64,000 bases of DNA from a virus (IMGVR_UViG_3300009081_000009:1-64000); one strand, 5' to 3'; positions 11,711-19,172 are shown, counted from the first letter of the stretch. Translations and numbers: made by a program. Notes: generated from the letters alone by a model not told the origin.

Positions 11711-12474
11711 TAATTACTAACTCCTGCTAATCGTTTCCAATTATGATTCTGACTTTCTATTCTATCTTTACTTGTACTGAGAATATTGCCATCCACCACA
11801 ATTTTAGCTAATTTAACTACAAGTTGAATGCCTTCTTTACTTATTCTATCATACTCGACTAACTTATTTTTATCACAAAAATCTTTTATTTCGTTATATG
11901 TTCCAATAGATCGTACATTAAATGTAGTCTCAACCGATGCTAATATATTACCATCAAATTCCACCTCATTCGGTAGTCTATCAAGTCGGATTGCATAAAT
12001 TAAATAAGTACCTACGGTCAATGCTTTAGATAGATGATCGCAATAATTCATCTCATCTCCATTGAGTTCTACATACGAATCATCGCCATGATATAAATTT
12101 TCAGGTAAATAGCTTTTATCATGAACCGTACTTATAATCTTATCAAATGAATCCTTTACTTTATGTAAATTAGTACCACTCTTCATATTTATAATGAATA
12201 ATGGATCTATAAATTTCGTATACTCAAAATTAGATAATAATATTTTTAATTCATTGGTTCCTATTCTACTCTTCACTAACATCATAAATTGATCAAGCAT
12301 AGTAAATGCCCATTTATCATTTTTATCTGGTTCTGCTATTTTATTTCCTAATGAATCAATTATATCTGCATTACATGCATCAGTTTCAGATACATCTTCA
12401 AACAAACGTTTCATTAAATATACGAACGCTTTATTATCATATTCACTTTTAGTTTTTTTATATTGTTCAGCCAT
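11710..12474 (-). CDS. Late hypothetical protein, resembles a conserved T4-like head-region protein
   Basis: N-terminal YLMKRL...ADIIDSLGNKI pattern; TATAAACT at 12491-12498. Confidence 0.5.
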   Translation of the reverse strand: MAEQYKKTKSEYDNKAFVYLMKRLFEDVSETDACNADIIDSLGNKIAEPDKNDKWAFTMLDQFMMLVKSRIGTNELKILLSNFEYTKFIDPLFIINMKSGTNLHKVKDSFDKIISTVHDKSYLPENLYHGDDSYVELNGDEMNYCDHLSKALTVGTYLIYAIRLDRLPNEVEFDGNILASVETTFNVRSIGTYNEIKDFCDKNKLVEYDRISKEGIQLVVKLAKIVVDGNILSTSKDRIESQNHNWKRLAGVSN

Positions 12475-17073: not shown

Positions 17074-17427
17074 ATGAAGGTATATATGTATTTAGATTAC
17101 GAAAAGAAAGAAATTATAACCAGAATATTCACAAGTCCTGATATAGCTATAATTAAAATAAATAATAAATCAAAACCAAAAACTTGGGGACAAGCTAAAT
17201 ACTGGTTTGACAAAGCATCAAATAATTTAAATCTAGATCCTGATTACTATAAAACAATCGGTTGGGATGAATGGAATGATTTCATGGAAGGTGATAGACC
17301 AGATGATGAAATCTGGCTATTTAAGTTAGAACCAAATAACAACTTCGTTCCATATTCAGAAGGATTCTTCCGTGTCAGAAATGATGAACCAGTTAATTAT
17401 CTGAATCTAAGTGAAATTGATAATTGA
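17074..17427 (+). CDS. Hypothetical protein
   Basis: 117-aa ORF whose stop overlaps the 3' end of the convergent tRNA-Gln. Confidence 0.55.
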   Translation: MKVYMYLDYEKKEIITRIFTSPDIAIIKINNKSKPKTWGQAKYWFDKASNNLNLDPDYYKTIGWDEWNDFMEGDRPDDEIWLFKLEPNNNFVPYSEGFFRVRNDEPVNYLNLSEIDN

Positions 17428-17494
17428 CCTAGCTGGGATCGAACCAGCGTACTTCGGGTCAGAGCCGAATGCACTACCTCTATGCTATAGGTCA
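17424..17494 (-). tRNA. tRNA-Gln(CTG)
   Basis: Cloverleaf TGACCTA...TTCGG-CTCTGAC-CCGAA...GCTGG-TTCGATC-CCAGC-TAGGTCA; U1-A72; CCA not encoded. Confidence 0.92.
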
Positions 17495-17502
17495 TCATTA
17501 TA

Positions 17503-17585
17503 TTGTCCATGTAGGAGTCGAACCTACAGTATCCTTTCGGATGCCAGATTCAAAATCTGGTGAGCTACCATTACTCTAATGGACA
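17503..17585 (-). tRNA. tRNA-Gln(TTG) with atypical long variable arm
   Basis: CCAGA-TTTTGAA-TCTGG anticodon arm; variable arm ATCC-GAAA-GGAT; U1-A72. Confidence 0.88.
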
Positions 17586-17590
17586 TCATA

Positions 17591-17663
17591 TTGTCCGTGC
17601 TGGACTCGAACCAGCATCCTTGTGCTTCAAAGGCACCTGCTCCACCAATTGAGCTAACGGACA
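17591..17663 (-). tRNA. tRNA-Gln(TTG)
   Basis: TGTCCGT acceptor, GTGC-CTTTGAA-GCAC anticodon arm, GCTGG-TTCGAGT-CCAGC T arm. Confidence 0.92.
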
Positions 17664-17669
17664 TCAAAT

Positions 17670-17759
17670 TTATTTATCACATTTAGAACACTTAATTTCA
17701 TTATTATAAGTGAAATATAATAATGAACCACATCTATCACACATCTTTACATAATACAT
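17670..17759 (-). CDS. 29-aa C4 zinc-ribbon microprotein MYYVKMCDRCGSLLYFTYNNEIKCSKCDK
   Basis: Strong SD GAGGTG; CxxC-x13-CxxC; fills the gap between terminator T3 and the first tRNA-Gln. Confidence 0.7.
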   Translation of the reverse strand: MYYVKMCDRCGSLLYFTYNNEIKCSKCDK

Positions 17760-17776
17760 ATACACCTCTATATACG

Positions 17777-17804
17777 AAAAGAACTCTTGCTTCTGCAAGA
17801 GTCC
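17777..17804 (-). terminator. Attenuator terminator T3 upstream of the tRNA-Gln block
   Basis: GGACTCTTGC-AGAA-GCAAGAGTTC-TTTT. Confidence 0.8.
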
Positions 17805-17827
17805 CTAATTTATTTGACATAGCAACA

Positions 17828-17890
17828 TCAATCAGGTGGTCTAGCAGAGCTATCCATTACTTGTTGTTGCTGTTGTTGATTTGTCTTCAT
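17828..17890 (-). CDS. Leader peptide L3 MKTNQQQQQQVMDSSARPPD (Gln sensor)
   Basis: Six consecutive Gln codons (CAA CAA CAG CAA CAA CAA); ATG at the predicted +1 of a consensus promoter; followed by T3 and three tRNA-Gln. Confidence 0.85.
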   Translation of the reverse strand: MKTNQQQQQQVMDSSARPPD

Positions 17891-17896
17891 ATTACT

Positions 17897-17925
17897 AATA
17901 TAGTTCTTTTTTAGTGTTTTGTCAA
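17897..17925 (-). promoter_or_regulatory. Sigma70-type promoter driving leaderless L3
   Basis: TTGACA-N17-TATATT, with ATG 6 nt after the -10 box. Confidence 0.85.
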
Positions 17926-17945
17926 TACTTTTTTATATTTTTTAG

Positions 17946-18017
17946 TGATCCCACAGGAAATCGAATCCTGCTCCACGGATTAAAAGTCCGTTGCTTAACC
18001 TTCCAAGCTCTGAGATC
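17946..18017 (-). tRNA. tRNA-Lys(TTT), divergent (G8, 4-nt variable loop)
   Basis: ACGGA-CTTTTAA-TCCGT anticodon arm; CAGGA-TTCGATT-TCCTG T arm. Confidence 0.85.
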
Positions 18018-18023
18018 ATATAG

Positions 18024-18095
18024 TGGTTCCACAGGGATTCGAACCCTGTTCCATCGGTTAAGAGCCGATTGCATCTCCTATTATGCTTTGGAACC
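18024..18095 (-). tRNA. tRNA-Lys(CTT) (A8, 4-nt variable loop)
   Basis: ATCGG-CTCTTAA-CCGAT; GGTTCCA/TGGAACC acceptor. Confidence 0.88.
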
Positions 18096-18099
18096 TTAG

Positions 18100-18174
18100 T
18101 GGAACTGGTGGGACTTGAACCCACGACCCATCGCTTAAAAGGCGATTGCTCTAAACCAACTGAGCTACAATTCC
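18100..18174 (-). tRNA. tRNA-Lys(TTT)
   Basis: ATCGC-CTTTTAA-GCGAT; canonical D and T arms. Confidence 0.95.
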
Positions 18175-18177
18175 ATA

Positions 18178-18249
18178 TGGGTGTGGAGAGATTTGAACTC
18201 TCGACTCGCTGATTAAAAGTCAGCTACTCTACCACTGAGTTACACACCC
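18178..18249 (-). tRNA. tRNA-Lys(TTT)
   Basis: GCTGA-CTTTTAA-TCAGC; GGGTGTG/CACACCC acceptor. Confidence 0.95.
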
Positions 18250-18250
18250 T

Positions 18251-18287
18251 AAAAAATAAAAAACCTCACAACAACTGTTGCGAGGTT
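18251..18287 (-). terminator. Attenuator terminator T2 upstream of the tRNA-Lys block
   Basis: AACCTCGCAAC-AGTT-GTTGTGAGGTT-TTTTATTTTTT; 5' arm also complementary to GCGAGGTT in leader L2. Confidence 0.9.
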
Positions 18288-18311
18288 CAGTGAAAATCAT
18301 ATAATATGATG

Positions 18312-18371
18312 TTACACAACAACCTCGCTTGGTTGCTTTTTCTGTTTATTTTGTTTACTAATCATCTGCAT
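18312..18371 (-). CDS. Leader peptide L2 MQMISKQNKQKKQPSEVVV (Lys/Gln sensor)
   Basis: AGGA SD; 4 Lys and 3 Gln codons within KQNKQKKQ; 3' end carries the antiterminator strand GCGAGGTT. Confidence 0.85.
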   Translation of the reverse strand: MQMISKQNKQKKQPSEVVV

Positions 18372-18401
18372 AATCTTATCCTATTAAAAACATTCATTTA
18401 G

Positions 18402-18473
18402 TGGTTGCACGGGTATCGAACCCGATCTCCAGATTTTCAGTCTAGCGCATCTACCATATATGCTATCACAACC
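18402..18473 (-). tRNA. tRNA-Phe(GAA), atypical acceptor/T-stem junction
   Basis: CTAGA-CTGAAAA-TCTGG anticodon arm; 8 nt before the UA linker and a 4-bp T stem. Confidence 0.75.
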
Positions 18474-18477
18474 ATAG

Positions 18478-18550
18478 TGGTCAGGATCGGAGTTGAACCG
18501 ATGACGCAAGCATTTTCAGTGCTTCGCTCTACCTACTGAGCTACCTGACC
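18478..18550 (-). tRNA. tRNA-Phe(GAA)
   Basis: AAGCA-CTGAAAA-TGCTT; GGTCAGG/CCTGACC acceptor. Confidence 0.95.
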
Positions 18551-18671
18551 ATATAAAAAAGTCACTTTCATCAGTATTTTCACTAAATCGAGATAATCCC
18601 ATTTTTCTATCCTCAAGTAAACTAAGCTACCACTATGCATCTAACTTATAGGTCTAGATACTTGACCTTTA

Positions 18672-18753
18672 TGGATCAGGCAGGATTCGAACCTGCAATG
18701 CCCGAAGGCGGGTGGGTTACAGCCACCTGAACAACCAATTGTTCAACTGATCC
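18672..18753 (-). tRNA. tRNA-Tyr(GTA)
   Basis: GGTGG-CTGTAAC-CCACC; long variable arm GCC-TTCG-GGC. Confidence 0.93.
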
Positions 18754-18759
18754 TTATAG

Positions 18760-18832
18760 TGGATGTGGTAGGATTTGAACCTACTTCCCCTGCATTATGA
18801 GAGCAGTGCTCGACCAATTGAGCTTCACATCC
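18760..18832 (-). tRNA. tRNA with CAT anticodon (Ile2/lysidine type favoured, elongator Met possible)
   Basis: CTGCT-CTCATAA-TGCAG; G1-C72, so not an initiator; leader L1 has two ATA codons. Confidence 0.85.
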
Positions 18833-18836
18833 ATAG

Positions 18837-18917
18837 TGGGTTAGGTAGGGGTCGAACCTACAGTGCCCGAAGGCGGGGGATTTACAGTCCCCGGAGCAAC
18901 CATTGCTCAACTAACCC
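18837..18917 (-). tRNA. tRNA-Tyr(GTA)
   Basis: GGGGA-CTGTAAA-TCCCC; long variable arm. Confidence 0.95.
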
Positions 18918-18925
18918 AAATTACA

Positions 18926-18959
18926 TAACAAAAACCCACTTCTTTTGGAAGTGGGCTTT
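18926..18959 (-). terminator. Attenuator terminator T1 upstream of the Tyr/CAT/Phe block
   Basis: GCCCACTTC-CAAAA-GAAGTGGGT-TTTTGTT; CACTTCC also complementary to GGAAGTG in leader L1. Confidence 0.9.
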
Positions 18960-18993
18960 ATAACTTTTGCCATACGCATTTTACGTATATAAG

Positions 18994-19065
18994 TTATCGC
19001 ATCACACTTCCTTTCGGAGTTGTTTTTATAAATCGATAATACTTATATATGCGTTTCATGTTCAT
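18994..19065 (-). CDS. Leader peptide L1 MNMKRIYKYYRFIKTTPKGSVMR (Tyr/Ile-AUA/Phe/Lys sensor)
   Basis: Codon run AAA CGC ATA TAT AAG TAT TAT CGA TTT ATA AAA; antiterminator strand GGAAGTG near the 3' end. Confidence 0.85.
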   Translation of the reverse strand: MNMKRIYKYYRFIKTTPKGSVMR

Positions 19066-19072
19066 ACCTTAT

Positions 19073-19102
19073 AATATAGTTCTTTTTAAGACACTTTGAT
19101 AA
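19073..19102 (-). promoter_or_regulatory. Possible second promoter directly ahead of L1
   Basis: AAAAAGAAC-TATATT-A context identical to the L3 promoter; weak -35 TTATCA at 18-nt spacing. Confidence 0.5.
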
Positions 19103-19143
19103 ACTTTTTTAGAGAAATACTACTTTTCTTTCTCTATGTATAC

Positions 19144-19172
19144 AATATAGGAAAAAATTCAATGAATGTCAA
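19144..19172 (-). promoter_or_regulatory. Sigma70-type promoter of the tRNA cluster
   Basis: TTGACA-N17-TATATT. Confidence 0.85.

Follow-up and report, generated by a model that had tools for sequence, protein, structure and literature searches.

Codon-matched leader peptides ahead of amino-acid-sorted tRNA blocks point to attenuation control of tRNA genes in a giant T4-like phage

How might a phage control transfer RNA (tRNA) genes that are ordered by amino acid and headed, group by group, by a short open reading frame (ORF) and a terminator? The question is raised by positions 17424-19172, read on the minus strand, of a 64,000-nt stretch of viral DNA (IMGVR_UViG_3300009081_000009:1-64000; the window), where the tRNA genes run Tyr/CAT/Tyr/Phe/Phe, then four Lys, then three Gln. 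A preliminary description had read this locus as a tRNA cluster gated by leader-peptide attenuators that are matched in their codons to the tRNAs downstream. This reading is supported in silico by permutations of leaders and blocks, by repeat units elsewhere in the genome, by related phages and by a complement of the terminator 5′ arm within the leaders. The elements described at the locus, namely two promoters, the leader ORFs L1-L3, three terminators, 12 tRNAs and a Zn-ribbon ORF, were all found at their places. The tRNAs were called by ARAGORN (11 genes) and by Rfam, which added a fourth tRNA-Lys and otherwise returned tRNAs only. The three units consist of the following elements.

19144..19172, minus strand: promoter P1, TTGACA-17 nt-TATATT, upstream of L1 (11 of 12 matches, the top score in the region)
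18994..19065, minus strand: leader ORF L1, 23 codons
18998..19011, minus strand: predicted antiterminator segment of L1, GGAAGTG..., complementary to the 5′ arm of T1
18933..18956, minus strand: terminator T1, 9-bp stem, -13.7 kcal/mol, with a U-tract (18931-18959 in the terminator scan)
18672..18917, minus strand: tRNA-Tyr(GUA), tRNA(CAU) and tRNA-Tyr(GUA) (ARAGORN, Rfam)
18401..18550, minus strand: two tRNA-Phe(GAA) (ARAGORN, Rfam; the second copy reaches only 35.8 bits in Rfam)
18312..18371, minus strand: leader ORF L2, 19 codons
18320..18329, minus strand: predicted antiterminator segment of L2, GCGAGGTT, pairing with AACCTCGC in the 5′ arm of T2 at -14.8 kcal/mol
18262..18287, minus strand: terminator T2, 11-bp stem, -15.4 kcal/mol, with a long U-tract (18261-18288 in the terminator scan)
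17946..18249, minus strand: four tRNA-Lys (UUU, UUU, CUU, UUU), three called by ARAGORN (18023-18249) and the fourth by Rfam
17897..17925, minus strand: promoter P3, TTGACA-17 nt-TATATT (11 of 12 matches)
17828..17890, minus strand: leader ORF L3, 20 codons
17779..17805, minus strand: terminator T3, 11-bp stem, -15.6 kcal/mol, with a U-tract
17424..17663, minus strand: three tRNA-Gln (UUG, UUG, CUG) (ARAGORN, Rfam)

The count of four tRNA-Lys genes was correct: the fourth occupies 17946-18017 (52.8 bits in Rfam), and its UUU anticodon was read by eye. For the CAU tRNA, a similarity comparison did not decide between Met and Ile2; a tRNA-Ile2 would read the ATA codons of L1. P1 and P3 are the two best promoter matches in the region, where promoter-like sites as a class are not above shuffle expectation. 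Terminator-like sites number eight in the region compared with 1.9 in shuffles (about fourfold), T1 and T2 being among them. Across the 164.7 kb of the whole record, the strict promoter motif matches 14 times; seven of the matches fall in tRNA regions, six of them on the tRNA strand before leader units.

The codon lists previously given for the leaders also proved right. L1 contains three TAT, two ATA, one TTT and four AAA/AAG codons, and its sensing core, codons 6-14, is made up of three Tyr, two Ile-ATA, one Phe and Lys codons. In L2, four Lys codons (three AAA, one AAG) are interleaved with four Gln codons (two CAA, two CAG), and L3 has six consecutive Gln codons at codons 5-10 (five CAA and one CAG). 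Lacking a separate promoter, L2 is nested within the transcript of L1.

Similar units recur in the remainder of the genome. The 64 kb of the window open an IMG/VR virus record of 164,708 bases (G000; completeness estimate, 39%), which carries 57 tRNA genes in five clusters. Beyond the 64-kb stretch, tRNA blocks are headed by four more units of leader and terminator (L4, L6, L7 and L8), and the Pro tRNAs are preceded by a further ORF (L5).

L4: conserved promoter, Shine-Dalgarno sequence, 24-codon ORF and terminator before the Leu/Ser/Trp/Cys/His block; codons 3-17 specify only Ser, Leu, His, Cys and Trp
L5: ORF with a Pro-Pro pair but no convincing terminator, before two Pro tRNAs
L6: ORF with N-N-N-N-E-R(AGA)-E and terminator, before three Asn tRNAs and Arg-UCU
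L7: nested ORF with E-R-E-E-E and terminator, before five Glu tRNAs
L8: 28-codon ORF and terminator before the Ala/Gly/Met/Thr/Ile/Arg/Val/Asp block; past the start codon, 25 of 27 codons specify Val, Thr, Ile, Ala, Asp, Arg, Gly or Met

Together, the eight blocks partition all 20 amino acids, and in every unit except that of Pro the first tRNA is immediately preceded by a strong canonical hairpin and its U-tract. Synonymous codon families are divided among the leaders, AGA accompanying Asn in L6 and ATA lying in L1. L8 of G000 is devoid of ATA, its versions in the related contigs L210 and L211 have one, and L6 also holds a CGC; sensing at the level of codons rather than amino acids is only suggested by this distribution. 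Shine-Dalgarno sequences (AAGG/AGGA) lie 6-8 nt before the starts of L1, L2, L4, L7 and L8; in L1 this is a Shine-Dalgarno-like AAGG 7 nt ahead of the second ATG, and in L2 an AGGA 7 nt upstream. The starts of L3 and L5 lie 6-7 nt past the -10 element. In P3 this element ends 6 nt before the L3 ATG, and L3 is thus probably leaderless. From these features, we infer that the leader ORFs are translated, that the terminators are functional and in which direction the units respond.

To what extent could the codon match arise by chance? Each leader was scored against each block by its binomial enrichment over the phage's own amino-acid usage. The true pairing of eight leaders with eight blocks was the unique best of all 40,320 permutations, with a summed -log10 P of 25.7 against a mean of 4.7, and notable off-diagonal scores were found only for the next downstream block on the same transcript (L1 with Lys, L2 with Gln and L6 with Glu). 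When all 1058 ATG-started ORFs of 15-32 codons in the record served as background, L8 and L7 ranked first for their own sets, L3 and L4 third, L6 seventh and L2 14th. The earlier claim that each of L1-L3 is enriched for the codons of its tRNAs thus stood for L2 and L3 but not for L1 taken alone, which ranked 114th, though its core is kept in relatives.

The second line of evidence is conservation. The record has genes for a T4-type major head protein, a portal, tail fibres and replication; its major capsid protein is at most ~30% identical to those of cultured (T4-like) phages, and a DNA search of cultured phages returned tRNA-level similarity only, leaving no cultured relative on which experiments could be done. 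Its relatives in IMG/VR include two complete 420-kb genomes with terminal repeats (G002 and G003). Judged by these sequences, the source is a giant, distant T4-like phage of ~420 kb. Of the relatives compared, G001 has a capsid 93% identical to that of G000; G007 and G009 (capsid identity 85% and 83%) share about 72-78% DNA identity with G000 at the tRNA locus. We further compared the contigs L076, L206, L207, L210 and L211 and a distant set of ~60% capsid identity.

In G001, the L1 peptide is identical and that of L3 near-identical. G007 and G009 retain promoter, leader and terminator before the same kinds of tRNA, with different leader sequences and different versions of all three terminators. 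Their L1 core is of the I-K-F-Y-Y-F-K type while the remainder differs, their L2 homologues carry five (G007) and six (G009) Lys codons in diverged sequence, and the consecutive Gln run of L3 comprises six codons in G001, eight in G007 and six in G009. The leader ORFs remain open in relatives. The units outside the window behave likewise. In contig L076, the N-N-N-N-E-R(AGA)-E leader stands before precisely the tRNAs for Asn, Glu and Arg-UCU, and in contig L206 the Ser/Leu/His/Cys/Trp leader is retained with two additional His codons, ahead of Leu, Leu, Ser and Ser next to a flanking protein of 53% identity. The odd His codon of L8 is replaced in contig L207 by Arg, a member of the set, and in contigs L210 and L211 a strongly diverged 30-codon L8 still draws 26 of its 30 codons from the set supplied downstream; L210 also carries an L7 homologue. 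The preliminary description had proposed searching related tRNA clusters for the match between codons and anticodons, and no leader-bearing homologous locus was found to break it.

In the relatives of ~60% capsid identity (the two complete 420-kb genomes and one 260-kb contig), the tRNAs are unsorted, and the tRNA spacers of G002, the only ones read in this group, contain no comparable leaders. The leader system is therefore clade-specific, and leaders and the sorting of tRNAs by amino acid appear to go together. Further searches added little: an IMG/VR search with a neighbouring protein of 619 amino acids found no relative, no tRNAs lay near relatives of a 700-amino-acid protein or near the more distant relatives of a 273-amino-acid protein, and a scan of a single metagenome yielded one additional leader only.

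The third line of evidence is the geometry of the leaders. The stretch that best complements the terminator 5′ arm falls between -16 and -2, counted from the stop codon, in L1, L2, L3, L4 and L6 and over the stop codon itself in L8; in relatives, too, it is found in the last five codons (or at the stop in L8). Co-transcriptional folds were predicted for 20 leader instances, with the transcript ended at the 5′ arm and 28 nt masked as the ribosome. With the ribosome on the sensing codons, the mean probability of antiterminator pairing was 0.35-0.83; for a ribosome on the last codons or at the stop, it was ≤0.17 in 19 of the 20 instances and 0.38 in L7 of G000. Without a ribosome, it was ≤0.18 in L1, L6 and three of four L3 instances, owing to pairing of the sensing-codon region with the antiterminator segment, which suggests a protector helix in L1, L6 and most L3 versions, comparable to the 1:2 pairing of trp. 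For L1, the values were 0.50-0.82 with the ribosome on the sensing codons and 0.00 without it or with it at the stop. For L3, the folds predict that the Gln run pairs with the stop-codon region on ribosome-free RNA and that stalling at the last Gln codons favours a fold that takes up the T3 5′ arm.

The leader also tracks the terminator arm in evolution: in relatives, the L1 segment reads GGAGTGG(G) where the 5′ arm reads CCCACTC. At one position of L8, antiterminator strand, 5′ arm and 3′ arm have changed together (G/C/G to A/U/A), and in L2 a G-C pair becomes A-U or G-U, giving one compensatory pair in three genomes. The antiterminators of L8 and L2 are 100% paired in all genomes, compared with 29-50% for a shifted partner. 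Direct blocking of the terminator by the ribosome, as in a pyrBI-type model, was rejected: the stop codon is 22-37 nt ahead of the terminator hairpin in G000, too far for a terminating ribosome to block it, and this distance fits the antiterminator mechanism.

From the pairing statistics, the conserved leaders and these modelled folds, we consider it probable that the units work by ribosome-mediated attenuation, which would place the tRNA blocks under negative feedback from the decoding speed of their own codons. A strong promoter of the sigma-70 type would give a transcript that opens with an ORF of 15-30 codons rich in the codons of the downstream tRNAs. Under fast decoding, the ribosome would reach the last codons or the stop and cover the segment that mimics the terminator 3′ arm, whereupon the hairpin would form and transcription would stop before the tRNAs. 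When the cognate charged tRNA is scarce, the ribosome would stall 5 to 15 codons earlier, and the free segment could pair with the newly made 5′ arm. This antiterminator would let RNA polymerase continue into the tRNA genes, and the new tRNAs would relieve the stall and close the loop. At the locus in the window, three such units would act in series: L1 on Tyr/CAT/Phe, the nested L2 on Lys, and L3, from its own promoter, on Gln. Since L1 also has Lys codons and L2 Gln codons, a shortage affecting a downstream block could open the earlier gates as well.

Several observations weigh against attenuation. The shuffle control of the antiterminators is of moderate strength and fails for L3: of 100 shuffles for G000, the observed value was reached by 4 for L1, 1 for L2, 58 for L3, 7 for L4, 12 for L6, 3 for L7 and 3 for L8. 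The covariation comes from 3-4 sequences per unit and is not significant against shuffles. When whole leader-terminator transcripts were folded to equilibrium with ribosome masks, the terminators (-14 to -19 kcal/mol) always formed, so that the model rests on kinetic, co-transcriptional reasoning. In the folds ended at the 5′ arm, the low pairing for a ribosome at the stop follows in part from the masking itself. In L2, L4 and L8, the antiterminator forms even without a ribosome, which means that read-through would occur on transcripts left untranslated. The logic of L7 is ambiguous, since there are two antiterminator candidates and one of them overlaps the Glu codons. L5 is unsupported as an attenuator for want of a convincing terminator and ranks 116th of 1058; neither L1 nor L5 is significant alone. 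A promoter inside the Leu/Ser block (described below) would leave the distal tRNAs, including Trp, Cys and His, expressed ungated. Finally, leader-peptide attenuation requires coupled transcription and translation, which is not universal in bacteria.

Some of these points would be accommodated if the leaders were real codon sensors with another output, such as access of RNase P or RNase E or loading of Rho and hence processing or stability, or if the sign of the response were reversed (feed-forward). A stalled ribosome would mask the L7 antiterminator candidate that overlaps the Glu codons, L5 has no clear terminator, and the terminators always form at equilibrium. Moreover, an ORF without a terminator, described in the following paragraph, runs into tRNA-Phe, which suggests that translation may act on the tRNA transcripts in another way. 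We nevertheless regard this alternative as unlikely: seven of the eight units have their canonical hairpin and U-tract immediately ahead of the tRNAs, six families place the 5′-arm complement in the last codons or over the stop, as a logic of stall to read-through would have it, and positive feedback on tRNA supply makes little regulatory sense.

The ORF in question and the other features of the locus are listed here.

19073..19102, minus strand: weaker promoter-like site adjoining L1 (9 of 12 matches)
18516..18602, minus strand: conserved ORF before the Phe genes, running into tRNA-Phe
17670..17759, minus strand: Zn-ribbon-like ORF of 29 codons (two CxxC pairs), located between T3 and the Gln genes

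The ORF at 18516-18602 has a Shine-Dalgarno sequence and encodes an M-G start, then R-F-S, acidic residues and F-F. Two of its three Phe codons stand in tandem at the 5′ end of tRNA-Phe, no terminator follows it, and homologous ORFs occupy the same position before the Phe genes of G007 and G009; it is possibly a Phe sensor of another kind, acting for example on processing. The weaker promoter-like site has a -10 element similar to that of P3, ending 7 nt ahead of the first L1 ATG, and L1 could be leaderless if transcribed from there. The Zn-ribbon-like ORF is present in G001 and absent in G007 and G009, where tRNA-Gln directly follows T3; it thus lies outside the core switch.

If tRNA blocks are controlled by attenuation, what would the control be for? 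In its fullest form, the proposal is a complete modular homeostat of decoding capacity, in which eight attenuators covering 20 amino acids each open their own block, detect the loss of particular host tRNAs through anticodon-nuclease defence, host shut-off by the phage or codon-usage mismatch, and selectively repair it, the sorting of the tRNAs having evolved because of this control. We put this forward tentatively, as a possibility that is rather more likely to fail in some part than to hold as a whole. The triggers could include codon-usage mismatch, loss of host tRNAs induced by the phage, and defence. Amino-acid starvation would open the gates too, yet extra tRNA would not help then.

A narrower purpose would be a specifically inducible counter-defence that replaces tRNAs cut by anticodon nucleases (PrrC, PARIS AriB, or those of the retron or colicin type). 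Phage tRNAs are known to rescue infection from tRNA-cleaving defence, and the Lys, Tyr and Gln blocks each have a putative gate within 17424-19172. In the case of PARIS, AriB degrades host tRNA-Lys, and the tRNA-Lys of T5 neutralises the system and rescues infection (PMC11464382). However, the gates span all 20 amino acids, some of them in multivalent sets of eight and five, with no enrichment for known nuclease targets, and this breadth makes a general control by supply on demand the more economical explanation. Counter-defence as the specific purpose is therefore quite improbable. Least credible of all, to the point of being nearly negligible, is that the short ORFs are meaningless or unrelated micro-peptides, the hairpins leaky terminators or insulators and the codon match a coincidence of AT-rich DNA, which is indeed rich in AAA, TAT, TTT and ATA, and in which L1 and L5 do not stand out individually nor promoter-like sites as a class, for the true pairing is the best of all permutations, the leaders that rank first to 14th each stand before the matching block, the sensing codons are kept in six other contigs while the rest diverges, and a promoter followed by a strong terminator ~100 nt on makes no sense as an insulator.

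Several further observations were made at the tRNA clusters of G000 and its relatives. Inside the Leu/Ser block is a full consensus promoter without leader or terminator (G000 ~103676-103723, minus strand; contig L206 ~12345-12395). The Leu/Ser cluster also contains, according to ARAGORN, a tRNA with a four-base anticodon (tata) in an eight-base loop and a tRNA-Ser with the unusual anticodon ACU (G000 103227-103309 and 102949-103032). In several leader 5′ untranslated regions, the motif GAAACGAAA lies between the -10 element and the Shine-Dalgarno sequence (G000 104215-104180 and 131240-131275; contig L070 ~1075-1105; contig L211 ~875-905). An IMG/VR scan for a promoter with GAAACGAAA returned 118 stretches, mostly by chance; in one alone did tRNAs follow.

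In relatives, HNH-type and other homing-endonuclease-like ORFs are found between tRNA genes, splitting and reshuffling the blocks (contigs L005 8600-9470 and 9770-10720; L070 1480-2470; L076 12260-12700; L210 1-550). At the position of the first tRNA-Tyr, G007 carries an 89-nt tRNA with a long variable arm and the anticodon UUA (L070:1251-1339), a putative ochre suppressor that hints at stop-codon reassignment or read-through in this phage. In G002 and G003 (L067, L068), the tRNAs are separated by GC-rich spacers of 300-600 nt, highly structured in appearance and devoid of ORFs, which may be other RNA elements. Genes for WGR/PARP domains and a gene with an HD_4 domain (SpoT-like hydrolase) lie just upstream of the eight-amino-acid tRNA block (contigs L207 1-2888 and L210 2817-5797), and contig L206 has a gene resembling that of a CCA-adding enzyme; their presence suggests a wider translation-stress module.

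How do the phage units compare with known systems? Leader-peptide attenuation is the textbook sensor of amino-acid supply controlling enzymes, and trpL, hisL, pheL and leuL are the enterobacterial leader-peptide attenuators of amino-acid biosynthesis operons. The phage units share with them a short leader ORF with regulatory codons, an intrinsic terminator and a predicted antiterminator that would depend on the position of the ribosome, and with trp in particular the predicted protector helix for the ribosome-free state in L1, L6 and most L3 versions. They differ in being phage-borne and in regulating tRNA genes instead of enzymes, whereby the product would feed back on decoding itself. Several amino acids are sensed by one leader in ilvGMEDA (Leu/Val/Ile) and thr (Thr/Ile), as would be the case for L4, L8 and the Tyr/Phe/Ile-ATA/Lys codons of L1; the phage leaders, in contrast, combine as many as eight amino acids, and which ones are combined depends on the tRNA genes downstream and not on a shared pathway.

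T-boxes, like the units predicted here, are terminator/antiterminator switches that respond to the state of one specific tRNA and control translation-related genes. These elements of Gram-positive bacteria bind the uncharged tRNA through a specifier codon and the T-box motif and do not need translation, whereas the phage units carry their codons in an ORF with translation signals. No T-box matched in Rfam at E ≤1 in the region of 17424-19172 or at E ≤0.01 in the other clusters, where nothing besides tRNAs was found. The leader and riboswitch families of Rfam gave no match even at permissive thresholds, the best leader scores being 22.2 bits for Thr_leader (cut-off 55) and 28.5 for L10_leader (cut-off 44). 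By analogy, the units would work like the leader families without being members of them in Rfam.

On the side of phage tRNAs, the tRNA-Lys of T5 that counters PARIS likewise belongs to a large phage with many tRNAs able to replace those of the host (PMC11464382); in that study, the tRNA was simply expressed from a plasmid promoter (PMC11464382). A full-text literature search, outside which most subscription journals lie, found no report of leader-peptide control of tRNA genes, phage or cellular. The units make it testable whether phage tRNAs are constitutive or supplied on demand when the host tRNA pool is depleted or attacked. We know of no earlier case in which the transcription of a tRNA is tuned by the decoding speed of its own codons. 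If true, this would be the first, and it would account for the sorting of tRNA genes by amino acid in some giant phages. It would also provide a natural set of codon-specific, swappable sensors of tRNA availability, in which a change of the leader codons should change the specificity.

The nearest functional relative, by analogy, appears to be the pheM leader of pheST in E. coli, where a component of the translation apparatus is likewise under a leader peptide that senses its charged cognate tRNA. pheM controls a synthetase and stands as a single unit, whereas the phage units control tRNAs and form a genome-wide set. What sets the phage apart is the apparent use of attenuation logic on the tRNA genes themselves, with one gate per tRNA block: a known mechanism, attenuation, applied to a new class of target genes, as supported here in silico.

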